From a virus (Duplodnaviria > Caudoviricetes), in IMG/VR virus record IMGVR_UViG_3300021255_000152, positions 74,029 to 138,028 of that record: a stretch of DNA of 64,000 nucleotides, one strand, 5' to 3'. A program made the position numbers and the translations under genes. Shown here piece after piece: positions 1 to 64,000 of the stretch. The notes below the pieces were generated by a model. That model worked only from the letters and a program-made list of their open reading frames with translations. It was not told where the DNA came from and ran no database searches. Position 1 is the stretch's first letter. Each line of letters opens with the position of its first letter.

Positions 1-864
1 TAATTGTTGCTGACGGGTGTTTCTTAAAATATTGCGAAATTCCGATTGTTCAATTTTTTGTTTAAGATTTTCTTTATCCGTAAATACATTTGCCATACAT
101 GTTTCATCGCTTCAAGGCTTTCCGCATGAATAAACGCCGCCATCTGGATGAATTCCATATCAATGTCCAACGCAATTTTTTCCTTCACAAAAGAACAATT
201 CTTTTCCTTCAATATAAGAAAGTATTTCATCAAAAGGTCTGTCTAAATCATCTGTTTCTGTAATGCATATATAATCAAATAATTCAACCATTCTTTTGGC
301 TAATTCAATATGGTCTTCAATCGTTAATCCAATTCCAAAAGCTGTATTAAAAATTAGATTAAACTCATTATCTCGCGCAAATTGATAAGATTCAATAATT
401 CTCTTACTATTCTCTGGAGTCATTGTAAAAATAGCATTTACAACAACTCCTTTTTCTTTTCCTCGTTGCATTAATTCAAAGAAATTTCTTGAACCTCTAG
501 ATATATTATTATCAATACCATCCCAAGAACTTCCTATGTTTATTTGCAATTTTTTAAAATAATCTAATCAAGCATCATTTATTAATGTTCCATTTGATTG
601 AAAAGCTCAATTAATAGGTTTATCGGAAAAATGTTGTGTTACATTTTTAAAATAATCAAGTCCTAAAATTGAAGGTTCCCCTCCATGTCAAATAATTTCT
701 CAAGACTCATTTGGATCAATAGCAATTATATTTTCAAGTGCTTCAATAGCTTGTTCTTGGGTCATTTCTAAAGGATGTTCTGCATCTCGATTATTTTTTT
801 CATAACAATAAGTGCATTTTAAATTACATCTATATGTTGGTTTAAATATTACTGTATTTGACAT
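1..864 (-). CDS. Radical SAM/SPASM enzyme #3 (anSME/peptide-maturase-like), 3' end outside window; requires TGA=Trp
   Basis: ATG at 864 after AAGGAGG. KPTYRCNLKCTYC (CxxxCxxC), II[TGA]HGGEP, FQSNGTLINDA[TGA], SWDG, C-x4-C...DGGVYSC SPASM start. 6 in-frame TGA, several at conserved Trp positions; open to window edge. Confidence 0.93.
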
Positions 865-2182
865 AATCTTTTTGTAGTTCCTCCTTTAAGTATGCTGGCA
901 TATATAATTGCTGAATTAAATATTGTTTTAAAGTAGGATTTAATTTAACAAATTCTTTTGGTGTTAAATTTCCTAATTTATCATAAATATATGGGACAAT
1001 AGCTTTTCAAAATTTACATTGTGCAGAATATGGCTTTAATCCTTTTGATTCTTTTAAAGAACAATTCAAACAGCCTTGACCGCAAACAGGAAGATAATCA
1101 CAGTTTAAACATTGATTTTGTATTTGAGTTTGTTTTAGTTGTTGTAATTTTAAGCTTTTATCTCCATTAAAGAAATCTTTAATTGAATTAAGCTCATCTA
1201 TATTGCAAACATGCATTTCTTCAATACTTGTGTCATCACATCTATATAATTCACCATCTGCGTTAATACAAATACGATTTGAATATAAGCAATTATCTAA
1301 ATTGCATATCTCAGCAGAACGATTTAATGCTCGACGTATATAAGCGAGAGCAGATCGTTCTGGAACTCTTGGATTATTATCATATATAAAAAATTCTAAA
1401 TATTTTTTATACTCTTGGATAAATTCATCTATATCTAAGAATTTTTCTAATGGATTATTAGTAGTACCAAATACTGCATTAAAACTAAAAGGAACTCCAT
1501 TATCAGAAGCCTTTTTAGAATCTGCAATTAAATTTTTAACATTTTGTTTAGTAATTACAGATATTATAAAATAAAAATTAGATAATTTTTCTTGAGATAA
1601 TTCATATCCTCTACATTGCTGCCCACTTCAGTCATAACTGGTTCCAATAGGAACATTATATTTATCTAAAAGATATTTTCATTCATCATCTAAAAGAGTT
1701 CCATTACTTTGTGCATTAAAAATTAATTTTATATCTTCTTTAATAGCATATTTATACATTTCTAAACAAACATCATCAAATCATTGTTTATCTACTGTTA
1801 AGAACTCTCCTCCATGTCAAGTTCATTCGATTTTTGAATAACCTTCTTCATTTAATAATCTAAGTAATCTTAAAATGCGCTCTTTTGATAAAACCATTCT
1901 TGGTTTTTGCTGATTTTTTTTATCAAAACAATAAATACAGTTTTGATTACAAAAATTTGTCACTTTACAAATAACTTCACAATTATTATAACAATGATGA
2001 TCGTTTCAATCTCCTTGGAATGTTTTTTCTGAATCCTTTTTTCCCAAAAGAACTTGTAGATATTCGTTTTTTAATAAAGAGTAATAATTTTGAATTCCTT
2101 CTTCTGTAGTTTCATCAATAACTTGATTAAAGTCAATGTTTGGAAGATAATTATCAAAATCTATATAATCACTATATTTCAT
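842..2182 (-). CDS. Radical SAM/SPASM enzyme #2, 446 aa, with ~65-aa N-terminal extension; requires TGA=Trp
   Basis: GGAGGT RBS. KVTNFCNQNCIYC, IE[W]T[W]HGGE, QSNGTLLDDE[W], SPASM Cys set CNLDNC..DGELYRC..CLNCDYLPVCGQGC..C. 7 in-frame TGA; ends TAA. Confidence 0.93.
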
Positions 2183-2570
2183 TGAAACCTCCTATATAAT
2201 GAATAAAATCATTATCTTGTTTATTTTCTTGTGGAGATTTTAAAATATAAATAGTTAATTTATTTTCAATACAATATTGAATTATCACATTGATATATTG
2301 TAAGGGATAATCTTTAGAAAGGTCAAAGATAACACCACCATTTATAATATCTATATTATTAATTAAATTTTCAACAGAAGTTTTTGTTATTTTTGTAAAA
2401 AGATAATATAAATCAATTCTAGAATCTCAATTATTAGCAATAAATCTTTTTTTAAAAAATTCTGGAATTATTTTATCTTCAAAAGATAAAGCTATCTTGC
2501 ATTCTTCTGTTTTGTCGAAAACATGACGAATATTTTTATAAATATCTTTATCATATTGAAAAATTTTCAT
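2172..2570 (-). CDS. 132-aa hypothetical partner protein in the rSAM operon (1 TGA=Trp)
   Basis: Starts 2 nt after the upstream stop and overlaps the next start. Open with one TGA: MKIFQYDKDIY...GGFNEI*. Confidence 0.75.
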
Positions 2571-2572
2571 AA

Positions 2573-3754
2573 TTAATCTCCTGTTCCTAAATATGTAAGT
2601 AAATCTTGAATATCAATAATTTTTTGATTTTCAATAAATTCATCTACTCCTCCACCAGTAGAATAATTTGGGTTATTTCCTGTTCTTAAATTATAAGCTG
2701 TTGATGTTCCTTGGCGCATTTGAAGAATATCTTCCCATGTAATAATGGTAAAATTAGAAACTACTGGACTATTTGTAAAAGTAACAGTAGTTTGACCCAT
2801 TGCAGTGAGAACTTTATTTACTTCTCCTTGTACCTGATCTTCATTTGGTTTAGTATAATAGTCAGTATTTCAAGTAGGAGCTGTATAGTGATAAATTCTA
2901 ATTGGAGAAGAGACTGCGGCATAAGTGGTTTCGTATGCGGTTGTATCTTGTCTAACATTACTATAACCAGTACCATTATTTGATGCAGTAACTGCATTGG
3001 TAGCATGATTTTCAATATGATGATAAGTTCAGCCATTTCCTGAAGGAATAGCACTCCAACTACCATTATCATAAACAGTAACACCAATTTTATACCAACC
3101 AGCGGTTAATGAAGTAGCTGTTCAAGTATAAGAGGTTGAAGTCTGTTCTGATAATAAGGTCCAATTTCCATAAGTACCGTTTTGGGTAGCACAATATTGA
3201 TAATATATACGAAATTTTGTGGCTGTGCTAGTATTATCATCAGAATATATTAATGATGTTAATATAATTTTTATAGATTTGCTGTTATAATATCTAGAAT
3301 TTGCAAATGTTGAACCAGATACTTGAGGTGCTTTATTGGTAGTGTTTGTTGGAGTTCTTCCAGTTTCTACTGTTGTATTAACTGCTGCAGTGTTGGTGTG
3401 ATTATTATATCCAGTATTTCTATGGTTACTATATCCACTATTTGTATGGTTATTATATCCGCTTTTAGTATATCCACCATTGTTTGTGTGGTCATCATAA
3501 CCTCTGTCGTTATGATTTGCGTATCATCCATCATTCATAGTTCATCCAGAACTTCTTCTATCGGTATGATCGTCACTACCGCTATTTCTATGGTTGCTAT
3601 AATTTCTATGGTTATTATATCCAGTATTTCTATGGTTATTAGCACCAGACTGAGAATAATTATTATAACCTGATTGACGATATGCAGAATTTGTATGTCT
3701 ATAATTTATTCTATATCCATTGGTATGAACCGCTTTTTGATGAGATTTAATCAT
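2573..3754 (-). CDS. 393-aa His/Tyr/Asn repeat protein fused to an Ig-like (Y_Y_Y/PKD-like) domain; putative rSAM substrate; 5 TGA=Trp
   Basis: AAGGAG RBS, ATG at 3754 overlapping the rSAM1 3' end. Joins track ORFs 3542..3808 and 2573..2800 in one frame. Repeats GYNNHRNT/GYSNHRNT/GYDDHTNN, Thr-rich linker, then NKAPQV...STSYT[W]TATSLTAGWYKIGVTVYD. Confidence 0.88.
3380..3727 (-). repeat. Imperfect ~24-nt coding tandem repeats (G-Y-N/S/D-N/D-H-T/R-N/D-S/T)
   Basis: Recurrent plus-strand unit tttctatggttattatatccagta and variants; 11 H-x-N/D motifs in the translation. Confidence 0.85.
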
Positions 3755-4706
3755 TTTCTTTCTCCTTTCTATATCCAAGACAGGCGCAATAAAGTCCCGT
3801 TCGAGCATGTCTTGGACAAGATAAGCATTCTTTTTGAGGCGGAGTTTTTCTTAGAGAATCTTCTTCCGCATGAAGTAAATCTAATATTTCATCAAAAGTT
3901 TCAAACTCTGATAAAGCATGTTTGAACTTGTTGCATCCAAAACAACCAATAATATCTAATTCTGGCGTAACATCTAAGGCAGAACCATCACAAGCAAAAC
4001 TTCCAAAAAATGATGGGTCTATCTTCATAGCAAATGCAACGAAATCATCGTCATATGCGCAAATAGGCGGATTATTACAATCGCAAGAAAATGTTACATT
4101 ATATTTGGTTGCCCAAGTCAGCATTTCTTTTAATATAGGTTGAAATTCATGAAAATACTGTTTAAAATTAAAATCTTTAGATAATTTCATATTTGGTACA
4201 GTAATTGACCATCTAATATCAGAAATATTATATTTTGCAATAATGTCTTCCCAAAAGCTCATATCTTGATGCGGATCAAAAATATTAATACTAATACGAC
4301 TTACAGCATTTGGAATGCATAAAGAAAGATAGTCTAAATTACGTTCTATCGTAGGAAGAAATTGCGGATTATTGTTAATATTTGGTAAAAATTCAATAAA
4401 AATTTCATCACTATATTCCACAATTTTTTGAGCAAATTCAAAAGAAAATGAAAAATTAGAAAAAACTAACACGGAAGAAAAACAATCATAAGAAATTATA
4501 ATATCTAATAAATCAAAAAATTGCGGATGTAATGATGGCTCTCCTCCGATAAGTCTAACATTTTTTTCATTATTTTGCTTTAAAAAATCTAAATATATTT
4601 TAAAGTTATCTAAATTTATATTTTTTACTGTATTTGTTTTCATTTCTGTTTGCGCGAAGCAATAAGGACAATGAAAATTGCAATAAGTATTTATCATTAA
4701 GTTCAT
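3747..4706 (-). CDS. Radical SAM enzyme #1 with Cys-rich C-terminus (SPASM/twitch-like), TGA-free
   Basis: NTYCNFHCPYCF, IGGEPSLHP, C-terminal C..GCFGC..CLSC..CAC. Confidence 0.92.
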   Translation of the reverse strand: MNLMINTYCNFHCPYCFAQTEMKTNTVKNINLDNFKIYLDFLKQNNEKNVRLIGGEPSLHPQFFDLLDIIISYDCFSSVLVFSNFSFSFEFAQKIVEYSDEIFIEFLPNINNNPQFLPTIERNLDYLSLCIPNAVSRISINIFDPHQDMSFWEDIIAKYNISDIRWSITVPNMKLSKDFNFKQYFHEFQPILKEMLTWATKYNVTFSCDCNNPPICAYDDDFVAFAMKIDPSFFGSFACDGSALDVTPELDIIGCFGCNKFKHALSEFETFDEILDLLHAEEDSLRKTPPQKECLSCPRHARTGLYCACLGYRKEKEND

Positions 4707-4862: not shown

Positions 4863-7340
4863 ATGTTAAATTTATGCTTACCTATGAAGGTGATTAACAT
4901 TACTCAACATTCTGGTAGTAATTTTAGTCATCCAAATGGCGCACTCGATTTAGCAGGTTCTGATGCTGGAGTAGATTTTGCTTTTGCTCTTGGTAATTAC
5001 TGAAGATGTATTGCAGGACCTTGAGGAAGTAATACGTATTTCTTCACCGCATCTGACGCAAAAGGTAATCCAGTTACAGTTCATTGCGCGGATGGAGTGA
5101 ATAGAATTGTTACCGTAGCTATGACTCATAGTAATTTAAGGTATAATAAACCTATTATTGGTAAAGTTTATTCTGATGGTGAAGCGATATATGAAGAAGG
5201 TACTGCAGGTCAAGCAACAGGTAATCATATTCATTTTGAAGTGGCAGAAGGCTTGCATTATAGTAAAACAAAAGACTATAATTTAAATGTATATCGTATG
5301 CCAAATGAATTAAAACCAGAAGATGTTTGCTTTATCTGTGATAGTTTCTCTAAAGTTAAGAGCATGGGTGGAGTAACGATGAAACATTGTGATACACCTT
5401 ATTATGAAACGCAAGATACTAAACCAGTATTAGGAACACTACGCGGTATTGATATTAGTAACTGGCAGGCAAGTATGGATGTGGCTGCGGTCAGTGCTGA
5501 TTTCGTAATCCTAAAAGCTAGTGAAGGCGTAGATTGGAAAGACCCTGCGTTCGATACATTACTTGAAAAGGTTAAGAAAACCGATAAGTTAATCGGTTTT
5601 TATCATTTTGCACGTCCAACCGCAAACAACACTCCAGAAGCTGAAGCTGAAAGTTTCTTGAAGTTTATTACTCCTTCTGGATTAATTGGCAAGGCTATTC
5701 TAGCTTTGGACTGGGAAGCTGAAAATAAACAAAATGTTGCTTATGCTAAAGCATGGCTTGACTATGTTTATAATAAAACAGGTGTTAAGCCTTGGATTTA
5801 TATGAGTGAGTCTGTTACCAAGAATTATGATTGGAGTTCTGTTGCAAACGCTGGTTATCCTCTTTGGGTAGCTAAGTATAGAGATAAGTCTCAAGATTAT
5901 AATTATGATATGACTAATGCGGGAACAGCACCACAGGTTAATTATTGGAATAATTATATTATGTGGCAATGGACTGGTGTTGGTAGATTAGACAGTTATA
6001 ATGGAGATATTGATTGCAATTTATTCTACGGAACTGCTGATACTTGAAGAAGTTTAGCTGCTCCAGTAGAAGATGAATTAGCACAATATACTGACCTTGA
6101 GCTTGCGCACATGGTTCTTGAAAATAAGTTCGGCACAGGCGAAGAACGTAAAAAAGCTTTAGGCGATAGATACAAAGCGGTTCAATTAATTGTAAATCAA
6201 TTAGTTAAAGAACAGCAAGAACAAAAGCCTTCTATTGATGTTGGACCTGTTGTCAAATATTCAATTCAATATAATGGATTAACTGTTCATATTGCAAAGA
6301 TCAAAAAAGATCAAGAGATTAGAGGTTCTGTTGATGGAAATAGATATGGGGTTAAATATGATAAAACTGTTCCAGCAGGATTCTCTGATAAGGATTTACT
6401 TAATGCCGGTTATCAAGAAGCTTGCGCGCAAAATGGTTCAACATTCTATTCATGGAATGGCGCCACTTATGCAGAAGGCATTGAGATTTCTAAGGGTATA
6501 AATAATCAAGATTTTTATATGGATGCAGTTTCTAAATTTAATAGTGTTATGGCTATTGGATTTCCATATACTGGTGGAATTGTATTTGCGCCACAAAAAG
6601 AAATTGTTGAAACTTATTCTAGATATTATGGAGCAGTAACGGGCATTTTTGGAATTATTTATGAAGGAAAACAAAATGCTATGGGAAGTTCTATTAACCG
6701 CAATGGAGGATTTACTGTAAAAAGTGGGCGTTCTATCCTTGCGGAAGATGAAGATTACTATTATTCTATTTGTTTTGTTGGAGATACTGGTTCTACTGGT
6801 CTTACTGGAAAAGAGCTTTATAATTTATGTATAACCGTGTCTAAAAATATGATTAATGCTATTTGCTTTGATGGTGGTGGAAGTGTATTCCAAAGAATTG
6901 AAGGTGAATATACAATCAATACTACTCGTCAAGTTAAAAATGGTATTATGTTATTTATTAAAGATGATGAATCTACTTCACAAGAACCAAAAGATGAAAC
7001 ACCAGTAAATCCTTTAGATAAATATTCTGACGAAGAGTTGGCAGATATGGTTCTTGACGGAAAATTTGGTTCTGGGGATGCACGAAAAGAAGCTCTTGGA
7101 AATAGATATATAGCAGTTCAAACTATCGTTAATATAAGAGTTATTAACGCTTATTTAAGAGCAGGAGATAAAATCCGTATTAAAAATAATGCTAAAGATT
7201 TAAATACAGGAACTACTTATATCAAATCAGTCTATTTAACAGTATATAAAGTAAAAGAAATTTCTGAAAATAGAGTAGTATTTGGTACAGATAATGCAAT
7301 TATTGGCGTTGTTTCTAAAGATAATATTATATTAGAATAA
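4863..7340 (+). CDS. 825-aa modular endolysin: M23-like peptidase + GH25 muramidase + Cpl-7 repeat + NAGPA/phosphodiester-glycosidase-like domain + Cpl-7 repeat + SH3-like tail; 3 TGA=Trp
   Basis: AGGAG RBS, ATG 4863. TGA at 5001, 5022 and 6045 join track ORFs 5097..6047 and 6111..7340. Motifs SHPNGALD and GNHIHFEV (M23), GIDISNWQ/KASEG/LDWE/DIDCN (GH25), LAxMVLxxKFGxGxxRKxALG twice (Cpl-7), AICFDGGGS...RQVKNGI (NAGPA). Confidence 0.9.
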
Positions 7341-7353
7341 GGAGGAAAAGGAT

Positions 7354-7782
7354 ATGATTAATAATTTCACAGCATTAGCAGTTGTTGCTATGTTTATTGA
7401 AGCATTTATCACTTATGGTAATACTATTGCTAAAGAACATCGTATTCAATGGCAAATTGTCTTTGCTTTTGTTGTTGCGTTAATTCTTTGCTACAATAGT
7501 GATTTGAACTTATTCCAATTCATGGGATTATCTGAAAAATATCCTATTATTGGAATCGTATGTACTGCACTTGTTATGTGTAGAGGCTCTAACTACTTCT
7601 TTGAGTTCTATAAGCAATTAAGTAGCTGGCGTGCAAACAATCCAACAAAACCAGAAGATGTTAAGGATGATTTCTTATTCGCATCTAAGGAAAAAGTTGA
7701 AGAAGCTGTAGCACAAGAAAACGAGCTTCAGGAACCAAAAGACGAGATTGAACAAGAAGACGTAAAAGTTGCTAATCGTTAA
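7354..7782 (+). CDS. Putative holin
   Basis: Directly after the lysin; 2-3 hydrophobic segments, RGSNY motif, charged C-tail. Confidence 0.75.
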   Translation: MINNFTALAVVAMFIEAFITYGNTIAKEHRIQWQIVFAFVVALILCYNSDLNLFQFMGLSEKYPIIGIVCTALVMCRGSNYFFEFYKQLSSWRANNPTKPEDVKDDFLFASKEKVEEAVAQENELQEPKDEIEQEDVKVANR

Positions 7783-7789
7783 AATTTTC

Positions 7790-7819
7790 TTGACTTTTGG
7801 AGAAAAAATTTAGTATAAT
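7790..7819 (+). promoter_or_regulatory. sigmaA-type promoter upstream of ORF-hsp20-tRNA(UCA)-GT8
   Basis: TTGACT-N18-TATAAT. Confidence 0.65.
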
Positions 7820-7840
7820 AACAATGTAAGGAGAACTGAT

Positions 7841-8026
7841 ATGGTATTATACGTTGATACACATGATGAATTAAAAAAGGTAGAGAATTTTCTATTTAGA
7901 TTTATTTATCCAGAAGAGTTCTCTTTACATATTGTTATTAGAGATGAAGAGGAAGTTGGTGAATATTACAGATATAGAACTGTATATAACGAATTTGCTC
8001 ACGGTCTCGTTTTAGAAACTTTTTAG
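7841..8026 (+). CDS. Hypothetical protein, 61 aa
   Basis: AAGGAG RBS, open frame. Confidence 0.6.
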   Translation: MVLYVDTHDELKKVENFLFRFIYPEEFSLHIVIRDEEEVGEYYRYRTVYNEFAHGLVLETF

Positions 8027-8053
8027 ATTTTATTTTTTGGAGGTATTTTTATT

Positions 8054-8425
8054 ATGATTTTTGATTATGATTCTTTTTTTAACTGGGATAAGCCAGCATA
8101 TACTTTTAGTCGCTCTGTCCATGATATGTCACCGTATAAAATTAAAACTTTAGAAGATAGAGTTGTATTGGTTCATAATATCGTGGGTGTTAAAGAGAAA
8201 GATATTAAAGTTGATATTGTAAATGAAGACGGAAGAGATCAGCTTGTCATTGAAGGTGTAACTCACAATGACGTATTGAACTATGATTATAAAGTTAAAT
8301 CTAAATTTGATATTAAAGCTGATATGTTTAAAAACGTCACATATAGTGTAGAGGATGGACTTCTTTACATTAATTTGTATAAAAAAGAACCAGAAGTAGC
8401 AAAATTAACTGTTACTAAAGCTTAG
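8054..8425 (+). CDS. Small heat-shock protein (Hsp20/alpha-crystallin family)
   Basis: GVKEKDIKVDI...LVIEG...VEDGLLYINL pattern; GGAGG RBS. Confidence 0.75.
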   Translation: MIFDYDSFFNWDKPAYTFSRSVHDMSPYKIKTLEDRVVLVHNIVGVKEKDIKVDIVNEDGRDQLVIEGVTHNDVLNYDYKVKSKFDIKADMFKNVTYSVEDGLLYINLYKKEPEVAKLTVTKA

Positions 8426-8426
8426 T

Positions 8427-8450
8427 AGGTAGAGATTTCTCTACCTTCTT
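8427..8450 (+). terminator. Hairpin (weak terminator or processing signal) just upstream of tRNA(UCA)
   Basis: AGGTAGAG-ATTT-CTCTACCT followed by TCTT. Confidence 0.45.
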
Positions 8451-8452
8451 AT

Positions 8453-8523
8453 AGGGGTATCGTTCAACGGTAGGACAGTGGTCTTCAACACCATATATGT
8501 GGGTTCGAATCCTACTACCCCTG
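8453..8523 (+). tRNA. Opal-suppressor tRNA-Trp(UCA)
   Basis: Cloverleaf AGGGGTA/TACCCCT, discriminator G, anticodon arm GTGGT-CTTCAAC-ACCAT, T-loop TTCGAAT, short variable loop. Body closely resembles Firmicute tRNA-Trp. Confidence 0.93.
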
Positions 8524-8541
8524 CTATTATTGAGGTGTTTT

Positions 8542-9225
8542 ATGAAATATGCTTATGTTACATTGTTAAGTTCTGATGATTATATTTGAGGAGTCCTTGG
8601 ATTAAAATATAGTTTAGAAAAAAATAATTGTAAATATCCGCTAGTCACAATAGTAACAAATGATATTTCTCAAAAAAATTTAAATTTATTAAAACAAGAA
8701 AATATTATTATTAAATTAGTAGAAAAACAAGTTTTTCAGAATATCTCAAATGACCATAGATATAAAACTTGTATAAATAAGCTATATATTTTTGGTTTAA
8801 GTGAATATGAAAAAATATTTTTTCTTGATGCTGATTGTATTGTTATTTATAATTTAGATTTTTTATTCAATTATGATCTTCCAATATTTTCTATAATTCC
8901 AGATATAGAAACTTCTTATAGTCGTGGATATATTTGAGGAGGTGCTTTTTTAGTAAAACCTTCTTTAAAATTAAAAGAATACTTTTTTCAAATAGCACCA
9001 AATTTTGATACTGATGAAAAAATTCTTAATGATTTTTTCCAAAATTTTAATTTTAAAATTTTTAATGCAAGCTTTTTTATCATACACGACTATAATCCGA
9101 TTAAAAAGTATTGGGAGAGATATTCTTTAAAAGATAAAGAAAAAATAAAAAATTTTATTGATAATTCAACATACTTAATTATGGAAAAAACAAATTGAAT
9201 ATATTCAGAAATTTTACCACATTAA
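8542..9225 (+). CDS. Glycosyltransferase family 8 (glycogenin-like), 227 aa, 3 TGA=Trp
   Basis: GAGGTG RBS. MKYAYVTLLSSDDYI[W]GVLGLKYSL...NKLYIF..YEKIFFLDADC (DxD). Absent from the code-11 track. Confidence 0.85.
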
Positions 9226-9271
9226 AAAAAATAAAGGGAGTAACCAATTAAGGTTACTCCCTTTTTATTTT
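9226..9271. terminator. Bidirectional intrinsic terminator between convergent genes
   Basis: A-tract, GGGAGTAACC-loop-GGTTACTCCC, T-tract. Confidence 0.85.
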
Positions 9272-9904: not shown

Positions 9905-10408
9905 TTAATTCGACCAATCATAACCCTCTTCCTTAATTAATTTATCTTCTGTTTGCGCGCAAGTACCAATGCATATAGCATCACATTCATCTTGAGTTGC
10001 TTTTATGTTATATGTCTCTTGGACCCATAGCTGCGCGTTCTTTTTTTGTTCTGGACGACGTTTTCCTTTTATCTGTAATTTTGATTTTCAAGTTACAGAA
10101 GGGATAATGATTACTTTCTTATTTAACTCTACAGCAGTCTCATAAACTACACCATAAACATTTGCCAATGTTTTGAAAGTATGAACGTTGTTTCCAACGG
10201 TTGATTGCATTTGTATATCTTCAAAAGCCACAGTATCTATATTTCATTCTGTAAATTTTTGAATCATAAATGCGCGAATTGCTACTAATCTATCTCCAAT
10301 ATCGTCCTGTTCGGTAGTTAGATGTCCTCAATCTTTAAGCTCCCCATCAATGAAGATTGATCATCCAGACACTCTACTTGCCTGATCTAGTGCTAAAATT
10401 CTGGTCAT
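9905..10408 (-). CDS. RuvC-like Holliday junction resolvase, 167 aa, 4 TGA=Trp
   Basis: MTRILALDQASRVSG[W]S...VAFEDIQ...PSVT[W]KS...DECDAICIG. Invisible in the code-11 track. Confidence 0.88.
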
Positions 10409-10652
10409 ATTCCATTACTGCCTCCTCTACTGCATCGTCATATGCCCAAACTCTTTGGGCAAGGCCAGCAGGGTAGGCATATTTATCTACATATAAATGT
10501 ACTTCACCAACGATATTTTTAATCTGTTCATTATCTCCATGAGTTAATAATATCTGAGTTAAACCATTGGTGATTTTAATATATTCATTATCTTGATCTG
10601 TAAGATAATCTGTTTTTCTTACTCTCTTCGCAAGAAATTCATCTAATGTCAT
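10374..10652 (-). CDS. Hypothetical protein
   Basis: Track ORF; start moved to the ATG just after the dUTPase stop. Confidence 0.55.
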   Translation of the reverse strand: MTLDEFLAKRVRKTDYLTDQDNEYIKITNGLTQILLTHGDNEQIKNIVGEVHLYVDKYAYPAGLAQRVWAYDDAVEEAVMEYDQNFSTRSGK

Positions 10653-10653
10653 A

Positions 10654-11196
10654 TTAGTTACCTGTGCTGCCGAAACCGCCTGTACGAGTACCACTTGCCG
10701 CATCATCTTCAGTAGTATTATACTTCATGATAATGCCCTGTCCAATCTTATCTCCTGGCTGGAGAATAATATCTACTGGAGAAAGATTAATAATCTGGAA
10801 GAAAATTTCTCCATCATTGGATTCATTTCCATAATAATCTGCATCAATAATTCCGACTCCATTAGCTAAAATAAGCCAATTATTTAATGGAGTAGAACTA
10901 CGCACGGAAATCTGTAGATATTCATCTGGATCGAGCTTGCATTTAATTCCAGTAGGAACTAATGTTGGTTTCAAGCCTGTCTGTTTTGTGATATTCTTTA
11001 AACTATCTAAACCGTACGGAATTCTCTTAGCCGTGAAATCCTCTAAATCTTCCATTAAATTCCAATATGATGGAACTAAAATCTGGTCTGAAACCATGAA
11101 ATCATATCCTGCTGAATTAGCAGTTGCGCGAGTTGGAATTGTTGCCCCAACCTTATCTCCATCGCTTAATCTCTTTACTACTTCAAATTTAGCCAT
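10654..11196 (-). CDS. dut: Trimeric dUTPase
   Basis: SAGYD, RSS, GIIDADYYG, GQGI, RTGGFGSTG motifs. Confidence 0.95.
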   Translation of the reverse strand: MAKFEVVKRLSDGDKVGATIPTRATANSAGYDFMVSDQILVPSYWNLMEDLEDFTAKRIPYGLDSLKNITKQTGLKPTLVPTGIKCKLDPDEYLQISVRSSTPLNNWLILANGVGIIDADYYGNESNDGEIFFQIINLSPVDIILQPGDKIGQGIIMKYNTTEDDAASGTRTGGFGSTGN

Positions 11197-11462: not shown

Positions 11463-11739
11463 TATTAGGCCCTTTCTTATCCATATAAATATTCAATATT
11501 CTATTACTAAACTTTGTCTTATTAATATCTATAATTTGATTTTTAATATCAACAGAAAATTCAGGATAACCTACAAGATGAATTTCGTCAATATTATTTT
11601 CATTACTATATCTGGCTAAAAAATTTGCAAGATTTTCCATGGGAATTTTTGCCACAACTCTCAAGCCAGAATCACCATCTTTTACATAAACCATTTGGTC
11701 ATATGCAAAGAGATCTACTTTACAATAAATTACTGACAT
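11455..11739 (-). CDS. Hypothetical protein (probable paralog of 12563..12802)
   Basis: Operonic ORF; shared C-x-[VI]-D...QM pattern. Confidence 0.6.
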   Translation of the reverse strand: MSVIYCKVDLFAYDQMVYVKDGDSGLRVVAKIPMENLANFLARYSNENNIDEIHLVGYPEFSVDIKNQIIDINKTKFSNRILNIYMDKKGPNNE

Positions 11740-35514: not shown

Positions 35515-37842
35515 CTACACCTTTGAAACTGATTGTATTCTATCTTTAATGGCTATTACGCCAGACGCATTTCGTCCAAGAGTAGAAATATCCTTGGCTG
35601 AAATACAAATTGATTTAGAAAGTCCTATAATAAGAACTGTATCTTCATCATTAAGAAGTGCGGCATCAGCTACTTCGCTATCACCCTTATAGCAGATAAC
35701 ACCCTTTCCACCACGCTTCTGTGTAATGAATTCACTAGCAGCAACTCTCTTACTATTTCCATTAACTGCAAATATTCCAAGAGAGTCATTCTCGTCTCTT
35801 ACTACAAGTGCAGCAACTACTTCATCTCCATCATTAAGAGTAATACCCTTAACTCCTTGTGTTGAACGAGAAGTAGGAGCAATATCTAATGAACTGAATT
35901 TAATACACATACCCTTTTTAGTGATAAGCATAATTGGTTCATCTTTAATTAAACCGATACTTGCTAAACTGTCACCTTCACGCAATGAGATAGAAGATAT
36001 ACCAGTCTTCTTTTTTGTCTTAATATATTCATCTATTGGAGTCTTCTTAACAACGCCATTCTTTGTTACAAACAATACGAATTTTGCATCAGTATCTTTG
36101 TAGATAGAATATATTACTGCTGGTTTTTCATTTGGTGCAAGAGAGAGAAGTGTTGTAATAGGAACACCCTTTGTTATGTTATTTGTTTCAGGAATCTTAT
36201 CAACCAAGAGTCGATACATATTACCCTTATCTGTAAAGACCATTAATGAATCTACTGTGTTGGTTCTGATAACAGAATTTACAATATCATCATTAGTTTT
36301 GACTCCCTTGCCGCCTCGCTTTTGAGTTTTAAATGCGGTTACAGGAACTCGCTTAATTAAACCAGATTCAGTCATAATTACCGCTACTTTCTCTGGCTCA
36401 ACTGCAGCGATTTCTTTATCTTCCTTTGCTATGGTAATCTGTGCCAATTCAGTCTTACGGTCATCGCCAAATTCATTTACAATCTGACCTAATCGGCTAA
36501 GAATTATATCTTTTTGCTTTTGATCAGAACTTAAAATAAGATTATTGGAATTAATTCTATCTAAAAGTTCGTCTCTTTCTTGATTTAATTCAATTCCTTC
36601 CAATTTAGCCAAGGAGCTTAATCTCATTGCAAGAATAGCTTTTGCTTGATTCTCTGTAAATTTATATTTAGCAATTAAAGCATCTTTTGCCGCAGCTGAA
36701 TTATCAGATTTCTTAATTAAGGCAATGATATTATCAATATCTTCGATTGCTTTTAACAAGCCTTCAATAATTTCAACGCGAGCCTTGTCTTTTCTAATAT
36801 CAAATTCAAGTTCTCTTCTTAAGCAAGAAAGATTATGATCTACATAAATCTTGCAGCAATCTTTAAGGTTTAACTCTGTTGGAGTCTTACCCACAAGAGC
36901 AACCTGATTATAAGAGAATGTTGTTTGTAAATCTGTCTTTGCGAAAAGTTGATTTACAATATAATTTACATTTGCCCCACGTTCGAGTTCAATAACAATT
37001 CTAATACCTTTCTTGTTAGTTTCGTCTCGAACATCATCAATACCGTTAATTTCTTCTGCGGCATCGCCAATCTGCGCAAGTAAAGATTCTACGGTAATTC
37101 CATAAGGAATCTCATAAAACACGATATTATTTTTCTCTGTTTTATATTTTCCTCTAATCTTTACGCTACCATGACCTGTTCGCATAATATCAGGAATATC
37201 ATCCTTGTTGATGACAATTCCTCCCGTTGGAAAGTCAGGACCTGGAAGAGTTGGTTCTTCACCATTCATATACTGAGCAATTGCCCCAGCCACTTCTTTA
37301 AGATTGTGCGGCGCCCAGTTACACGCCATAGCTACGCCAATACCGCTATTTGGATTACAGAGAAGGTTAGGAAAAATTGAATGTAAAACAACAGGTTCTT
37401 CCATTGTTTCATCATAGTTTGGAATGAAATCTACAATATCTTTATCCAATCCTTTTAATAAACCCTTTTCCGCAATTTTGGCTAAACGAGCCTCCGTATA
37501 ACGTGCAGCCGCAGGTCCATCACCCACAATGTTACCATTATTGCCATGCCAGTCAATAAGCGGATAACGCATAATCCAATCTTGAGAAAGTCGAGCCATC
37601 GCGCCATAGATAGAACTATCACCATGAGGGTGAAGCTTACCCATTACATCGCCTACAATTCGGGCGGATTTAACATGTGGTTTAGAGGATGAGCGACCTT
37701 CAATATCACATGAATATAAAATACGCTTTGCTACTGGTTTGAGGCCATCTAATGCAGATGGAATTGCTCTATCAGTATTTACCGCATATGCATATTCAAT
37801 AAAATTTCGATGTAATTCATCATAAATATCATTATTCTGCAT
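35515..37842 (-). CDS. gyrA: Type IIA topoisomerase subunit A (gyrase A-like)
   Basis: DGLKPV, HPHGD, AARYTE, GPDFPTGG, QKRGGKG GyrA-box, beta-pinwheel repeats. Confidence 0.93.
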   Translation of the reverse strand: MQNNDIYDELHRNFIEYAYAVNTDRAIPSALDGLKPVAKRILYSCDIEGRSSSKPHVKSARIVGDVMGKLHPHGDSSIYGAMARLSQDWIMRYPLIDWHGNNGNIVGDGPAAARYTEARLAKIAEKGLLKGLDKDIVDFIPNYDETMEEPVVLHSIFPNLLCNPNSGIGVAMACNWAPHNLKEVAGAIAQYMNGEEPTLPGPDFPTGGIVINKDDIPDIMRTGHGSVKIRGKYKTEKNNIVFYEIPYGITVESLLAQIGDAAEEINGIDDVRDETNKKGIRIVIELERGANVNYIVNQLFAKTDLQTTFSYNQVALVGKTPTELNLKDCCKIYVDHNLSCLRRELEFDIRKDKARVEIIEGLLKAIEDIDNIIALIKKSDNSAAAKDALIAKYKFTENQAKAILAMRLSSLAKLEGIELNQERDELLDRINSNNLILSSDQKQKDIILSRLGQIVNEFGDDRKTELAQITIAKEDKEIAAVEPEKVAVIMTESGLIKRVPVTAFKTQKRGGKGVKTNDDIVNSVIRTNTVDSLMVFTDKGNMYRLLVDKIPETNNITKGVPITTLLSLAPNEKPAVIYSIYKDTDAKFVLFVTKNGVVKKTPIDEYIKTKKKTGISSISLREGDSLASIGLIKDEPIMLITKKGMCIKFSSLDIAPTSRSTQGVKGITLNDGDEVVAALVVRDENDSLGIFAVNGNSKRVAASEFITQKRGGKGVICYKGDSEVADAALLNDEDTVLIIGLSKSICISAKDISTLGRNASGVIAIKDRIQSVSKV

Positions 37843-37843
37843 T

Positions 37844-38971
37844 TTATTCTCCAGCCTCCTTATCATCAATCAAGATATATGCATTAGATAAAGACCTTTG
37901 TCCAAAGATAAGTCTTCCTCCAACTAAGAATCCTTGAGCATCCCAATCTGTATCATTTAAAATATCTATTAATTTTGAAATACTATATTTGTTATTGTCT
38001 TTTGGTACTAAAGCTAGAATAGAACCATCAAACCATCCGCTGTCATTTGTAAAGAATGGTTTCATATCTCTTGTTCTACTATTTACATAAATCTTTTCTT
38101 TATTAATGTGACGAATTGCTCGTCCCCATTCCCACCAGTTAGATTCTGTAAAGTGTTTAATTTTTCTATTTAAGAGAGCTTGTTTATGCTGTAACATATA
38201 CTCATTTGGTTCTGTATAATAATGAGCCTTTTTGGTTAAACCAGTTCTTTTAGTATCAGAAACCACTAGATCAATATTTCCAGTTTCTTCAATAAAAACA
38301 TTGTTTAATCCACTTGCTCCACCCACTAAAACATCAAATATATCACTTATAATTACCTTCTGTTTATTTTTACTATTATCAGAGTTAATTACTAAATAGC
38401 CATTATTACATTCAACAGGAATGGTATGAGAACCTCCTTTAACCCATCTAAAAATTACTACATTTGGGGCTGCATCTGGAAATACTTGAATATCACCAAA
38501 TTCCTTCCAAAAGGTAAAGCCTCCTTGTTCAAACAGCCTTTTGTTAAGACTTAGCGCATATGTGGCTTTAATAAAATCTCTAGGGGTTATGAATATTAAT
38601 TCTCCTCCTGGTTTTAATAGATCAATGCATCTGTCTATAAAAAATATATATAGATTAGTTCTTGAATCAAATTTTTGAGGAAGTTTTCTTTTTGTATCAG
38701 AGTCAATGTTTTGATACTTTATATATGGAGGATTCCCAATAATGGTATCAAAACTAACATCTTTTAAATCAAAGAAATTCATTACTTTTGCTCGTTTGTG
38801 AGCAACGGTTGGATCAATTTCTACTCCCATGGCAGATGGAAGTAAATCTAAGAAAACTCCTGCACCACAAGAAGGTTCTAAAATAGAACCTTCATTTTCT
38901 ATAAGACTAACCATTTCTTCTGCTATTTGAGTGGGAGTAAAAAATTGACCATATAATTCTTTATTGTCCAT
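37844..38971 (-). CDS. N6-adenine DNA methyltransferase (gamma class, TaqI/Eco57I-like)
   Basis: GQFFTP, LEPSCGAG, IIGNPPY, NLYIFF, LKPGG. Confidence 0.9.
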   Translation of the reverse strand: MDNKELYGQFFTPTQIAEEMVSLIENEGSILEPSCGAGVFLDLLPSAMGVEIDPTVAHKRAKVMNFFDLKDVSFDTIIGNPPYIKYQNIDSDTKRKLPQKFDSRTNLYIFFIDRCIDLLKPGGELIFITPRDFIKATYALSLNKRLFEQGGFTFWKEFGDIQVFPDAAPNVVIFRWVKGGSHTIPVECNNGYLVINSDNSKNKQKVIISDIFDVLVGGASGLNNVFIEETGNIDLVVSDTKRTGLTKKAHYYTEPNEYMLQHKQALLNRKIKHFTESNWWEWGRAIRHINKEKIYVNSRTRDMKPFFTNDSGWFDGSILALVPKDNNKYSISKLIDILNDTDWDAQGFLVGGRLIFGQRSLSNAYILIDDKEAGE

Positions 38972-42376: not shown

Positions 42377-43003
42377 TTACAAAATTTTCTTTTTGTCAAA
42401 TTTATGCTTCAACATTTTTCTAAAATATTCTTGGGTATATCCAAATTTTTCAAACCAGTATTTAAAATCATCTAAATTTTTTAATTCAGAATAATAATGG
42501 ACTTGATTCTCGTTTCAATTATATTCTTTGCATAGTTGCTCGCATAGTAGCAATGTTTGGGTCATGCAATCACGCAAATAATTGAGATTTTCTTTATTAT
42601 CTTCACATATGCAGATATGTATATATCTATCTGTATTTCAAGACTGCATGTTGGTTGGCATTGTTTTTATTATTGCAACCTGGTTATATTTATCTTTCCC
42701 AATTCAATAATGAAAATTATGATCTCGATGAGTGTGGTTATAATCGTTCATTTTATTATTATATCCAATCTTTTCTAGTATCTCTTGTTTATTTTCATTT
42801 TTACTACCAGGTTTTACATACCATCTTAAATATGGGCGTGGCATAAGAGACGAATGAATCACGATTCCTTTTGGATTAAGCATATTATAATGTTTAGCAT
42901 ATGCCGTACTATTGTACATTACACAATCAAGAACTCAAGAAATATTAATGTTCTTGTTTGTTGTTTTTTGCTCTAAGAATTTGATAAACTTTTTCTTTTC
43001 CAT
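42377..43003 (-). CDS. Amidase_2-like (N-acetylmuramoyl-L-alanine amidase fold) protein, probably catalytically degenerate; 3-4 TGA=Trp; start 43003 or 42919
   Basis: KGIVIHS..PYLRWYV..HY[W]IG..S[W]..ICICED..LCKEYN[W]..WFEKFG; open to TAA at 42377. Confidence 0.72.
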
Positions 43004-43385
43004 CAATATAATTCTTTAAATCCACTTTCATTTCTGCAATGCAGTCCTTGATTGTTTCAATGTCCTCTCTGGTCATTCTAATCTGACGATATAGCATTTT
43101 TACAGGATATGACTTAGGATCAAATTGCTTACTCTGTTTCATAGAGTATAAAAGTTGGTTTAGACCTTCTAATTTGATCCTTAGATCATTTTTATATGTG
43201 GCCATCATATTGATATGCATACGAATTTCCGCAATAGTGGAACCAGTAATTAAGCTCTTAAAATCTTCATCTACTGGATTGCAGTATGCTTCTCCCACAT
43301 ATTTTCGTCCATATTTATTATCCACAAATTCGCATTTAGTATAATTATCTTTATATGTAAATTTAGGTTCTTTTTTCGTTTTCAT
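42945..43385 (-). CDS. Hypothetical protein
   Basis: AGGAG RBS; GEAYCNPVD motif, coiled coil. Confidence 0.7.
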   Translation of the reverse strand: MKTKKEPKFTYKDNYTKCEFVDNKYGRKYVGEAYCNPVDEDFKSLITGSTIAEIRMHINMMATYKNDLRIKLEGLNQLLYSMKQSKQFDPKSYPVKMLYRQIRMTREDIETIKDCIAEMKVDLKNYIDGKEKVYQILRAKNNKQEH

Positions 43386-44132: not shown

Positions 44133-44619
44133 TTACCACCTCATCATTGCGGATAAATTCAATCTCAATAATGGAACAATCAATGTCGCCAAATTCATCT
44201 TTAGTAGGGTATGTAAATTTTTCAGACATATTACGGATTGCATCTTCTGGAACTCGAGCTAATCCATTTCGATTGAGGTTATTTTTTAAGCACTCTTCAA
44301 GTGGAGTATTGATAACATAAACTTCAAGTCGATCGAAAAGAGTTTTATCAACTCTATTATAGAACTTGCGACGAGAACCAACAGTAATATGAGTTGCATC
44401 TGCCCAAACAATGTCGTGGGATTCAGCACTCTTATTTACATCATGGCAAAATTTATTGAAAACATCTGTTTCTTTTGAGAAATAAGGAATACCAGGAGCT
44501 ATTAAAGAGAATCGAATAGCATCACGGGATACTACTGCGTCTTCTGGATGTGCCATCATTTTTACAAAAGTAGATTTACCGCTTGCTGGAATTCCAACCA
44601 TCATTCTAAGAGTTGTCAT
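44125..44619 (-). CDS. Polynucleotide kinase-like (AAA_33)
   Basis: GIPASGKST, SRDAIR, DATH..R, R..VPE. Confidence 0.82.
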   Translation of the reverse strand: MTTLRMMVGIPASGKSTFVKMMAHPEDAVVSRDAIRFSLIAPGIPYFSKETDVFNKFCHDVNKSAESHDIVWADATHITVGSRRKFYNRVDKTLFDRLEVYVINTPLEECLKNNLNRNGLARVPEDAIRNMSEKFTYPTKDEFGDIDCSIIEIEFIRNDEVVNE

Positions 44620-44821
44620 TTTCAAAATCACCCCTTTCAAATTTCATTTTGAATTTTGCTACATCTTGTTCTGAATAACATTCGTAATGATTTACTTCTT
44701 GTTTGCAGTGTATGCAATATAGCTTTTTTAAATGTCCTTTTCCTCTTTGCGCCGCTTCGTTGCGCGCAATGGGAATCCCCCTGTTCCCGCACTTTATGCA
44801 ATAAAATTCATGTGTAATCAC
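44606..44821 (-). CDS. Zn-ribbon protein resembling the ribosomal protein L33 fold
   Basis: CIKC...LKKLYCIHC...HYE spacing like bL33. Confidence 0.5.
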   Translation of the reverse strand: MITHEFYCIKCGNRGIPIARNEAAQRGKGHLKKLYCIHCKQEVNHYECYSEQDVAKFKMKFERGDFENDNS

Positions 44822-44962
44822 CTCATAACCTTCTTTCTAATCCATATTCATGTATTATTTCATCTTGTAAATCAAGATTCATTATAAGGAATAATTTACT
44901 TTTTGGAATAATATGAATACTTCCTACATTGTCTGCATAATAATAGTCATCTTGACTTTCTT

Positions 44963-45163
44963 TTAAGAAAATGTACCCACGATCCCGTCTAAAATTTTTG
45001 TAGCTCTGATCGCTAATTCTTCCATCTGACTTTTTGTAATTTTCTTCCATTTCCAACACCAATCGATTCGATGACAAATCCAATCAATATCCCTTTCGTG
45101 ATAAGGCTTAAAATTTTCATAACTTTTAAGGGCAGTATCAATTTCTTTATAGAAGTCTTTCAT
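44963..45163 (-). CDS. Hypothetical protein
   Basis: RBS and upstream promoter; WICHRIDWCWKW. Confidence 0.6.
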   Translation of the reverse strand: MKDFYKEIDTALKSYENFKPYHERDIDWICHRIDWCWKWKKITKSQMEELAIRATKILDGIVGTFS

Positions 45164-58634: not shown

Positions 58635-58716
58635 GCGAAGAGGATTCTCAATCGAGAATCCTCGATCTGCCCTTTGGGCCATCTGTTTAACCGTAGGCCC
58701 GCACATCCTACGATAA

Positions 58717-59026
58717 TGGACCTGAGGGGAATCGAACCCCTGTCCAAGAATATCTACTGTCCTCGACATCTATACTTACAGCTTCCCTATTCAAAGTAAT
58801 TAAAGATGCGTGAATAGGACCGCAATCCTTAATTTGGTTTGAAACTAAAGTGCTTTAATAATTACGACTAAAGAGCTAAAGCTAACTGATTAGAAGGTGC
58901 AAAGAAATTCTTGATCTTTGCGATAGTGTTTTTAACAAAATTTGCGTTTAAATTTAATTTTAGCGTAAGTCGCTACCTTGCTGCTGTCTTGGCACTCAAT
59001 AAACCTGTCGAAACCTTTACAAGCCC
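58717..59026 (-). ncRNA. ssrA: tmRNA; tag (A)ANFVKNTIAKIKNFFAPSNQLALAL*
   Basis: 5' GGGCTTGTAAAGGTTTCGAC, 3' GAC-AGGGG-TTCGATT-CCCCT-CAGGTCC-A with G3:U70. Resume GCA at 58945; tag ends LALAL-TAG at 58868. Confidence 0.9.
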
Positions 59027-60782: not shown

Positions 60783-60804
60783 ATAAATACCTCCTATCTG
60801 ATAG

Positions 60805-60876
60805 TCCGGGCGAGAGGAATTGAACCTCCACTCTTGCCCTTATAAGGAGCCTGCTTTACCATTAAGCTACGCCCGG
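60805..60876 (-). tRNA. tRNA-Ile(UAU)
   Basis: Loop CTTATAA; canonical D and T arms. Confidence 0.88.
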
Positions 60877-63178: not shown

Positions 63179-63661
63179 TTATTTAATAACTCTTTGTGTA
63201 ACAAATAAACCAATAATCATTGTGATAGTGTCGATCATGAATGCTGTGAAACTCTTCACAATTTTTACCGCAAATGGAATCTGATACAAGAAGCACTCAA
63301 TAAGAGTTTTCGCACATAGAATACCAAGAGCGACAAAGATTACGGTTACAATCATTTTCACCCAAATGTTCTTAGTCTTTTGGAACAAAATTCCGCACCC
63401 AAGTCCAATGATGAAATTACCTACGAACCAACCGATGCTGAATCCATATGGGGAAAATAGAATACTTTCAATTCCACATCCTACTGCGCCAATGAAGGCA
63501 CCCCAGGGGCCAAACATTTCACATCCAATAGCAAGGGCAATATATCCTAAATCAAGAGAAATTGCGCCAATGAATGGAATTTTCATGAAGGCACTTAGCA
63601 CACAATATAGTGCTGTGAGAATTGCGATTCCTGCGATTTTTTTTGTTGTCAGTTTATTCAT
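63179..63661 (-). CDS. ECF transporter S-component
   Basis: TKKIA.IAILTAL, LDLG, FGPWGAFIGAVG; 5-6 TM. Confidence 0.8.
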   Translation of the reverse strand: MNKLTTKKIAGIAILTALYCVLSAFMKIPFIGAISLDLGYIALAIGCEMFGPWGAFIGAVGCGIESILFSPYGFSIGWFVGNFIIGLGCGILFQKTKNIWVKMIVTVIFVALGILCAKTLIECFLYQIPFAVKIVKSFTAFMIDTITMIIGLFVTQRVIK

Positions 63662-63884
63662 AATCTATACCTCCTAATGTTCATGAATAAACCAAAAACA
63701 CTAGAAGATACGAGTATTTTTGGTTGACAGTTTAACGACATGATTTGCGACAAATACAAACTTCTTGGTCGAAAAAATACGATCACTCCTTGCTTCCTTT
63801 ATTTTATAACGCGACATTTTCCAAGCGTGATCGTGAGACGAATGTTAATGCCGCGGGCATTTTTCTCCTCACTGAAAGGAGTAG

Positions 63885-63958
63885 TCGATAGGGTGGGACT
63901 CGAACCCACAAACCACTGTTTCTAAGACAGTGTGCTATGCCAATTCGCGTACCTACCG
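63885..63958 (-). tRNA. tRNA-Leu(UAG), short variable loop
   Basis: ACTGT-CTTAGAA-ACAGT. Confidence 0.85.
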
Positions 63959-63963
63959 ATAAG

Positions 63964-64000
63964 TGTGGGATACGGGGGTCGAACCCGTACTTCATCCTTG
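63964..64000 (-). tRNA. Partial tRNA (3' half; 5' end outside window)
   Basis: T arm ACGGG-TTCGACC-CCCGT and acceptor 3' strand. Confidence 0.7.

Follow-up and report, generated by a model that had tools for sequence, protein, structure and literature searches.

Apparent confinement of tryptophan-coding TGA to structural, lysis, nuclease and radical-SAM genes in a large phage of the ruminant gut

The DNA analyzed here is a 64,000-nucleotide stretch of a tailed-phage genome (hereafter, the window), comprising bases 74029-138028, i.e., the right-hand 64 kb, of the 138,028-bp IMG/VR contig IMGVR_UViG_3300021255_000152. This phage very probably uses two coding regimes, with early genes that are free of TGA, and structural, lysis, nuclease and radical-SAM genes in which TGA stands for tryptophan, a phage tRNA(UCA) being the decoder. 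An earlier note on the window had proposed that TGA is reassigned to Trp only in a selected set of mostly late or toxic genes, and we followed its claims through the whole contig and into related phages. The contig is linear, has 34% GC, and is ∼79% complete as estimated by CheckV; the stretch is present in DNA runs from bovine, goat and sheep gut metagenomes (several studies), which identifies a ruminant source.

Results

In-frame TGA is partitioned among gene blocks

About a third of the genes (∼37 of ∼119) contain in-frame TGA. The late block (genome 1158-71865, plus strand), which encodes a sigma-factor-like protein, TerL, the portal and giant tail proteins of 1100-2700 amino acids, has 151 TGA and 171 TGG codons, with 26 of the TGAs in the tape measure gene and 24 in an open reading frame (ORF) of 1818 amino acids. 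The radical-SAM cluster (genome 72119-78734, minus strand, the final part being window 1-4706) is the most TGA-rich part of the genome, with 28 TGA and 10 TGG, and the lysis unit (window 4863-9225, plus strand) has 6 TGA and 15 TGG. The early block extends on the minus strand from window position 9272 to the end and holds replication genes, 23 tRNA genes and a transfer-messenger RNA (tmRNA), and here ∼60 early, replication and tRNA-region genes have no TGA whatever. Three genes within this block are recoded (a RuvC-like resolvase, a GIY-YIG nuclease and an amidase, together 9 TGA and 7 TGG); when they are set apart, the block contains 0 TGA and 191 TGG in 14,396-14,436 codons, depending on trimming. 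The difference between these early genes and the rest of the genome (185 TGA, 196 TGG) was highly significant (Fisher p = 5e-42), and so was that between the three recoded genes and their neighbors (p = 7e-12). This genome-wide count, a check that the earlier note had proposed, agrees with its claim that TGA is confined to a selected gene set, and all nine window genes in which it had reported in-frame TGA contain the codon at the numbers given.

The early/replication block proper (10654-50126, minus strand) encodes a dUTPase-like protein, NrdD, DnaE, a helicase, a RecJ-like protein, DnaB, LigA, GyrA, GyrB and others, and TGA occurs there only in the GIY-YIG gene and the amidase. Pfam matches were obtained for DnaE, NrdD, DHH (RecJ-like), DnaB, LigA, GyrA, GyrB and an SF1 helicase, all of which are open under translation table 11, so that the long replication genes described in the note as TGA-free are indeed so. 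Its statement that genes end in TAA or TAG was true of every tiled gene, with 54 TAA and 11 TAG stops in the early block; since the early ORFs lack TGA altogether, no early gene can end in it.

Coding density under the two codes followed the same division. In the left 83 kb of the contig (late block, radical-SAM cluster and lysis unit), code 11 gave 114 ORFs with a median length of 117.5 amino acids and 76.0% coverage, and code 4 gave 55 ORFs with a median of 243 amino acids and 96.8% coverage. In the early region, by contrast, coverage was 94.3% with code 11 and 92.7% with code 4, so nothing was gained from code 4, and reading TAG as sense did not improve coding density. Sense TGAs (∼190 sites) were evenly placed along genes (Kolmogorov-Smirnov p = 0.41), with a slight excess in the last 5%; in ∼7 genes a TGA lies inside the final 8 codons, where sense and stop readings are indistinguishable. 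T and C were slightly underrepresented as the base after TGA, relative to TGG (chi-square p = 0.035), and the idea that this base provides a read-through context was rejected, the signal being too weak and partly opposite to expectation. Three further candidates were discarded: the ORF at 44562-45083 (173 amino acids, 7 TGA) is an out-of-frame artefact lying over real code-11 ORFs at 44606-44821 and 44963-45163, and in ORFs 35515-37923 and 10374-10745 the TGAs close to the 5′ end are upstream of the true start, which in the former is that of GyrA (MQNNDIY after AAGGAGG).

The partition is conserved among related phages

The phage is a large tailed phage, distantly related to the SPbeta-like and phAss-1-like phages of Bacillota. 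Its portal is 35% identical to that of phAss-1 and 25-28% identical to those of its closest cultured relatives, which infect Enterococcus, Bacillus, Brevibacillus, Clostridioides, Lactococcus and Staphylococcus, and megablast of 24 kb against GenBank phages returned zero matches. Related IMG/VR loci, collected using the portal and RuvC proteins as queries, fell into three groups, which recode TGA, recode TAG, or apparently use the standard code; the TAG-recoding and standard-code sister lineages have the same gene order as the TGA-recoding phage. Two TGA-recoding relatives with portals ∼70% identical to that of the phage, one of 178 kb (95% complete) and one of 161 kb (93%), were compared gene by gene. 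The presence of TGA agreed between orthologues in both comparisons (2x2 table 20/1/5/41, p = 1.7e-11, for the 178-kb relative, and 14/4/6/35, p = 5e-6, for the 161-kb relative), and early genes that are TGA-free in the phage were also TGA-free in both of these diverged genomes. At the level of sequence, both the gene partition and its conservation in relatives are thus established.

Codons aligned with TGA point to tryptophan

To read the meaning of the codon, TGA was masked as X, all genes were aligned to the related IMG/VR loci, and the aligned codons were read in relatives that do not recode TGA. In the portal neighborhood, phage TGA sites were matched with TGG in 310 of 499 cases in TAG-recoding relatives and in 62 of 101 cases in standard-code-like relatives; the phage's own TGG sites, which served as the control, were matched with TGG in 627 of 904 and 121 of 189 cases, respectively. 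Masked TGA therefore meets TGG nearly as often (∼62%) as does TGG itself (64-69%). The other partners were mostly Tyr, Phe and Leu codons, Cys and Ser codons were rare, and Gly codons were absent from the eight commonest partners. The same alignments paired phage CAA and CAG with TAG in the TAG-recoding group, revealing the different code of that group. Among relatives, TGA and TGG replaced one another about as freely as TGT and TGC. These comparisons bear out the assignment of TGA to Trp made in the earlier note, which had expected Trp in homologues at the TGA columns; the columns are mainly TGG, with some that are Tyr, Phe, Leu or His (for example, RuvC sites 27 and 55).

Protein families gave a consistent picture. 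Two SPASM radical-SAM enzymes, the GH25/CW_7 lysin, a GT8 protein, RuvC and the Amidase_2 protein were recognized by Pfam only with TGA read through. The motifs in which TGA had been placed at conserved Trp positions were all present, II-W-HGGEP at residue 59 of radical-SAM enzyme 3 (rSAM3), NGTLLDDE-W at residue 168 of enzyme 2 (rSAM2), SG-W and T-W-K at RuvC sites 16 and 107, and lysin site 395, although not all of them are strict Trp columns. X99 of rSAM3 and X168 of rSAM2 both align to W108 of anSME (PDB 4k36), and the rSAM3 X99 column has Trp in 6 of 7 distant homologues. At the W-HGGEP column (rSAM3 residue 59), 3 distant homologues have Trp and 4 have Phe, so that Trp is not invariant there, and lysin site 395, described as the end of the GH25 domain, lies outside the conserved GH25 core, is Leu in PDB 1jfx, and does not correspond to any Trp conserved among solved GH25 structures; of the TGA-recoding relatives, two have TGA at this site and one has TGG. 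Contigs from RNA libraries that are identical to the window span the TGAs at 160-162, 2870-2872, 3029-3031, 3122-3124, 3524-3526 and 3542-3544; because they retain TGA, there is no sign of RNA editing. Judged from these alignments, TGA is read as Trp in this phage.

A phage tRNA(UCA) lies next to the lysin

The only suppressor tRNA of the contig, whose presence the earlier note had reported, is a UGA-decoding tRNA(UCA) at 8453-8524 (plus strand), detected by ARAGORN and scoring 62 bits against the Rfam tRNA model. It is a 72-nt class I cloverleaf with no encoded CCA and with tRNA-Trp features: its nearest paralogue is the phage tRNA-Trp(CCA) (53957-54029, minus strand, in a set of 23 tRNA genes on that strand), which is 71% identical and has A1-U72, G73, and the D and T arms in common with it. 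G73 and A1-U72 are identity elements of bacterial tryptophanyl-tRNA synthetase (TrpRS), and the tRNA(UCA) is presumably charged by the host TrpRS. Evidence from E. coli for Trp charging of UGA suppressors is cited by Borges et al. (bioRxiv 10.1101/2021.08.26.457843).

The tRNA gene follows a series of genes on the plus strand that starts with an 825-amino acid lysin (4863-7340; 3 TGA, 11 TGG), in which Pfam finds a GH25 muramidase, a NAGPA-like region and CW_7 repeats. Next to the lysin is a TGA-free hydrophobic ORF of 142 amino acids, a candidate holin (7354-7782). A sigma-70-type promoter match, TTGACT-18-TATAAT (7790-7819, plus strand), has 11 of 12 consensus positions, in a region where the total of promoter-like matches is no higher than in shuffles. 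Then come two TGA-free genes (7841-8425, plus strand), a 61-amino acid ORF and a 123-amino acid, weakly Hsp20-like protein (87% and 83% identical in two relatives), and an 8-bp hairpin (8428-8445, plus strand) between the stop of the latter and the tRNA; two relatives have a hairpin at the same spot. No Theta/HDV-like ribozyme or other Rfam family adjoined the tRNA at E ≤ 1. Downstream is a GT8-like glycosyltransferase (8542-9225, plus strand; Pfam Glyco_transf_8) with 3 TGA, starting at the ATG at 8542 after GAGGTG, and the unit closes with a two-way terminator-like hairpin of 13 bp with T-runs (9233-9264, both strands). RNA contigs covering 7551-8434 (the promoter, the 61-amino acid ORF and the Hsp20-like gene) had 5-10 times the depth of the phage's other contigs in three RNA runs from two studies, DNA depth was flat over the same interval, and one RNA contig spans 7836-8434, starting just past the -10 box and ending at the hairpin that precedes the tRNA. 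Genes cannot be ranked by contig depth, and RNA libraries may contain DNA, so this depth is only a hint.

The tRNA(UCA) gene takes other forms in related phages. In eight TGA-recoding relatives it also follows the Hsp20-like gene, with its halves split by an insert just past the anticodon loop, and these split genes were missed by ARAGORN. The single insert measured, in the split gene at 1634-1990 of the 161-kb relative, is ∼250 nt long and matched an Rfam group I intron with 34.9 bits (E 3e-7 in a small search), which is below the gathering score of 50. In two relatives (11620-11714 of the 178-kb relative, and ∼9129 on the minus strand of the other), the tRNA(UCA) is 95 nt long and its variable region has an additional hairpin, whose 7-nt loop, GUCCAUA or UUCCAAC, contains U-CCA like the anticodon loop of tRNA-Trp; this hairpin is absent from the window tRNA. 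One clade thus has three suppressor-tRNA designs at one locus.

The earlier note had found no release-factor gene in the window. The same held for the complete contig and for three relatives of 93-95% completeness, where no match to release factors 1 and 2 (RF1 and RF2; PF00472, PF03462) or to TrpRS/TyrRS (PF00579) was obtained; of the genes that the note had proposed to look for outside the window, RF1 and TrpRS therefore had no match in the rest of the contig. The phage does encode a tmRNA (58714-59026, minus strand; Rfam RF00023, 74 bits). A tmRNA was present in all four TGA-recoding members examined (this phage and the three near-complete relatives), in 1 of 5 near-complete TAG-recoding genomes, and in 0 of 2 standard-code genomes, these being related genomes and not independent. 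The tRNA genes include a tRNA-Ile(UAU) at 60804-60876 (minus strand), an uncommon bacterial anticodon, beside tRNA-Ile(GAU).

Recoded genes of the radical-SAM cluster and the early block

The radical-SAM cluster, which occupies window 1-4706 and genome 72119-74028, contains a repeat protein and small ORFs beside its three radical-SAM enzymes, of which two have SPASM domains. Its first gene, radical-SAM enzyme 1 (3747-4706, minus strand; Pfam Radical_SAM), has no TGA. It is followed on the same strand by the repeat protein (2573-3808; 5 TGA, 4 TGG), a 132-amino acid ORF assigned to no family (2172-2570; 1 TGA), rSAM2 (842-2182; Pfam Radical_SAM and SPASM), which has 7 TGA and 0 TGG, and rSAM3 (1-864, with 255 nt more beyond the start of the window, 372 amino acids in all; Pfam Radical_SAM, E 1.7e-15), which has 6 TGAs within the window and 7 in the whole gene.

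Within the early block, the RuvC-like Holliday junction resolvase (9905-10408, minus strand; Pfam RuvC, PHROG 827) has 4 TGA and 2 TGG and lies at the edge of the TGA-free stretch. Among relatives in which TGA is not recoded, 65 of 66 have TGG at site 107, and the codon at site 16 is TGG in 34 and TAT in 27. Other clades have Tyr, Phe or His at sites 27 and 55, so that TGA at these two arose by amino-acid change. TGA was retained at all four sites by 9-12 of the 12 relatives that recode TGA, at ∼65% protein identity; the RuvC orthologue of the 178-kb relative has 4 TGA, and none was called in the 161-kb relative.

The second recoded gene encodes a membrane-anchored GIY-YIG nuclease (31512-32498, minus strand; Pfam GIY-YIG, 38 bits; PHROG homing endonuclease), with a single TGA at codon 3. 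This TGA was counted as real because it comes directly after AGAGGG (Shine-Dalgarno) and ATG, and because it is retained in orthologues: in two relatives, at 50% identity, it occupies codon 3 in one and codon 5 in the other, and 5 TGAs were counted in one orthologue. The third is an Amidase_2-like peptidoglycan amidase (42377-43006, minus strand; Pfam Amidase_2, E 2.8e-8), with 4 TGA and 2 TGG. It had no match among PDB sequences, and the IMG/VR scan gave one close relative only; the database homologues of the amidase are themselves TGA-recoded, and their codons were therefore read directly. Each of five relatives has 4-6 TGA in this gene, site 101 is TGG in three of them, and others have TGA at the two sites where the phage amidase has TGG. 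Two relatives whose portal and RuvC proteins are ∼70% identical to those of the phage retain TGA in the three recoded early-block genes.

The first gene of the late block (genome 1158-2318, plus strand) matches PHROG 5767, annotated as a sigma factor (E 9e-46), and contains 3 TGA, of which that at codon 242 comes first. In its orthologues 2 and 4 TGA were counted. Should its product direct transcription of the late genes, these would be under a double gate.

Discussion

The findings suggest how such a genome would be expressed. Genes without TGA would be readable by an unmodified bacterial translation system, and the tRNA(UCA), encoded close behind the lysin, would be expressed in one unit with two standard-code genes, driven by a promoter of host type. 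Genes with TGA would yield full-length protein only once the tRNA(UCA) out-competes RF2 at UGA, and virion parts, wall hydrolases and DNA-cutting enzymes would wait for this code switch. Since the tRNA lies behind a host-type promoter, any delay must come from build-up of the tRNA against RF2. That the recoded genes need the tRNA is mechanically certain. The delay may be adaptive, with TGA as the timer that the earlier note had suggested, and the retention of TGA in RuvC, the GIY-YIG gene and the amidase speaks for such selection. The host presumably uses the standard code, given the ∼60 TGA-free early genes, the two peptidoglycan hydrolases, and the sister phages that recode TAG or nothing.

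Several observations weigh against this reading. TGA makes up a share of 0.47 in the late block, below the A-ending share of AAR, GAR, CAR, TTR and AGR (0.66-0.95), and several late genes have no TGA. The 26 TGAs of the tape measure gene demand near-complete read-through at each site, and no means of removing competition from RF2 was found in the genomes searched. A helper gene could lie in the missing part of this incomplete contig, though the near-complete relatives have none. Finally, the metagenome-assembled genome bins of the relatives are inconsistent as to host, being mostly Bacillota, including Agathobacter, Bacilli and Clostridia, but also Treponema and a Bacteroidales genus.

Some of these points fit an explanation in which the codon has no regulatory role, and to which we give an appreciable but clearly minor chance. 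TGA would simply be intolerable before the suppressor is active, and elsewhere AT bias would let TGG drift to TGA, so that TGA marks late expression. The share of TGA never exceeds that of comparable A-ending codons in either the late block or the recoded early-block genes (0.56), and we therefore interpret the overall pattern as early exclusion and late tolerance of TGA, not as overall positive enrichment. The free interchange of TGA and TGG among relatives points the same way, as do TGA-free late genes such as that of the 370-amino acid putative major capsid protein (90% identical in both relatives), which fit a cost of incomplete suppression. Drift does not, however, account easily for the early-block exceptions, namely the four RuvC sites kept in most or all recoding relatives, two of which replaced Tyr, Phe or His, the single TGA at codon 3 or 5 of GIY-YIG orthologues that have diverged to 50% identity, and the multiple TGAs of the amidase in every relative. 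Gene families with a significant TGA preference have also been described in Agate phages (Borges et al., bioRxiv 10.1101/2021.08.26.457843).

Within the reading of a code switch, a rather unlikely addition is an unrecognized step that neutralizes RF2, for example if the suppressor reads, in the zero frame, the in-frame UGA at the frameshift site of host prfB. New RF2 synthesis would then be shut off and the code switch would be self-reinforcing, and the phage tmRNA would rescue ribosomes running through host UGA stops. We found no literature linking phage suppressors to the prfB frameshift.

A host that has code 4 of its own (TGA as Trp, as in Mycoplasmatales), with the phage simply following it and the early genes TGA-free for another reason such as codon preference or recent acquisition, is improbable. 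Organisms with code 4 have low GC and both tRNA-Trp(CCA) and tRNA-Trp(UCA), as the phage does, and one relative was in a bin labeled Bacilli. Against this, TGA is wholly missing from 14,436 early codons in which other A-ending codons make up 57-89% of their pairs, and the same genes lack it in two diverged relatives; only about a third of genes are recoded, and sister lineages of identical gene order either recode TAG or show no recoding. The phage also encodes a GH25/CW_7 lysin and an Amidase_2 enzyme, and code-4 gut bacteria are not known to have cell walls.

Other meanings of TGA (Gly as in code 25, selenocysteine or Cys), RNA editing or broken genes can practically be dismissed: ARAGORN does label the tRNA "SeC," from the anticodon alone, but the aligned codons are TGG and then aromatic or hydrophobic with Gly, Cys and Ser rare, the tRNA is of class I and fits the general tRNA model without the long variable arm or extended acceptor stem of selenocysteine decoding, the sites are numerous and evenly spread where selenocysteine sites would be sparse, the RNA-library contigs keep TGA, the recoded genes are conserved and collinear in relatives, and the share of genes recoded is far from the ∼90% of the Absconditabacteria/Gracilibacteria phages that read TGA as Gly.

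The phage instead shows what is seen in phages that recode TGA to Trp, with TGA aligning with Trp, recoding of part of the genes, and a phage tRNA(UCA). Among known TGA-to-Trp phages, which come from the gut and infect Firmicutes with the standard code, the Agate clade is the closest parallel. The recoding study of Borges et al. was reportedly published in Nature Microbiology in 2022. Agate phages, of ∼127-154 kb, come from the guts of cattle and other animals, and have TGA in structural and lysis genes, standard-code replication genes, a recoded endonuclease within an early gene, and few release-factor or aminoacyl-tRNA synthetase (aaRS) genes, and some of their near relatives use other codes (Borges et al., bioRxiv 10.1101/2021.08.26.457843). 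Compared by size, habitat and pattern, our phage resembles them in its scattered recoded modules, the recoded homing-type endonuclease in the early region, the tRNA(UCA), the lack of a release-factor or aaRS gene, and close relatives with TAG recoding or the standard code. In contrast to that account, RuvC, Amidase_2 and the radical-SAM cluster are not named there as recoded, and tmRNA is not mentioned. In Jade phages, the lysis cassette is preceded by a code-change module that consists of tRNA(UCA), TrpRS and RF1 genes (Borges et al., bioRxiv 10.1101/2021.08.26.457843). Here the suppressor tRNA likewise adjoins the lysis cassette, in a standard-code unit, but no TrpRS or RF1 was found, and the partners of the tRNA in its operon are the 61-amino acid ORF and the weakly Hsp20-like protein.

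Likenesses extend to phages that recode another codon. PhAss-1, of a proposed Phassvirus group from the human gut, reads TAG as Gln via a tRNA(CUA), with ∼28% of its ORFs recoded, including TerL, portal and tape measure (Babkin et al. 2023, PMC10607447). Our phage has a related portal, a similar size (phAss-1, ∼136 kb), a siphovirus-type layout, many tRNAs, no dedicated aaRS, and recoding in part of its ORFs, and differs in reading TGA as Trp and in its ruminant source. With crAss-like phages it shares a suppressor tRNA and the concentration of recoding in late genes, although these phages, of Bacteroidota hosts, belong to an unrelated phage order and have a different replication module. According to Yutin et al. 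(2021), crAss-like phages are said to read through TAG or TGA in late genes. Proteomic proof of TAG read-through exists for crAss-like phages (PMC9523058).

The pattern described here has already been published for Agate, Jade and Sapphire phages, and this phage is a clean further example and adds no new principle. For annotation, table 4 is needed for the lysin, RuvC, the amidase and the three-enzyme radical-SAM cluster to appear whole. The phage also sharpens the question of how one tRNA prevails over RF2 at 26 sites of one ORF without a helper gene. The recoded genes within its early block encode two nucleases and a wall hydrolase, with TGA retained across diverged relatives. The phage cleanly illustrates a published proposal, by which the recoding of stop codons restrains late, dangerous proteins.

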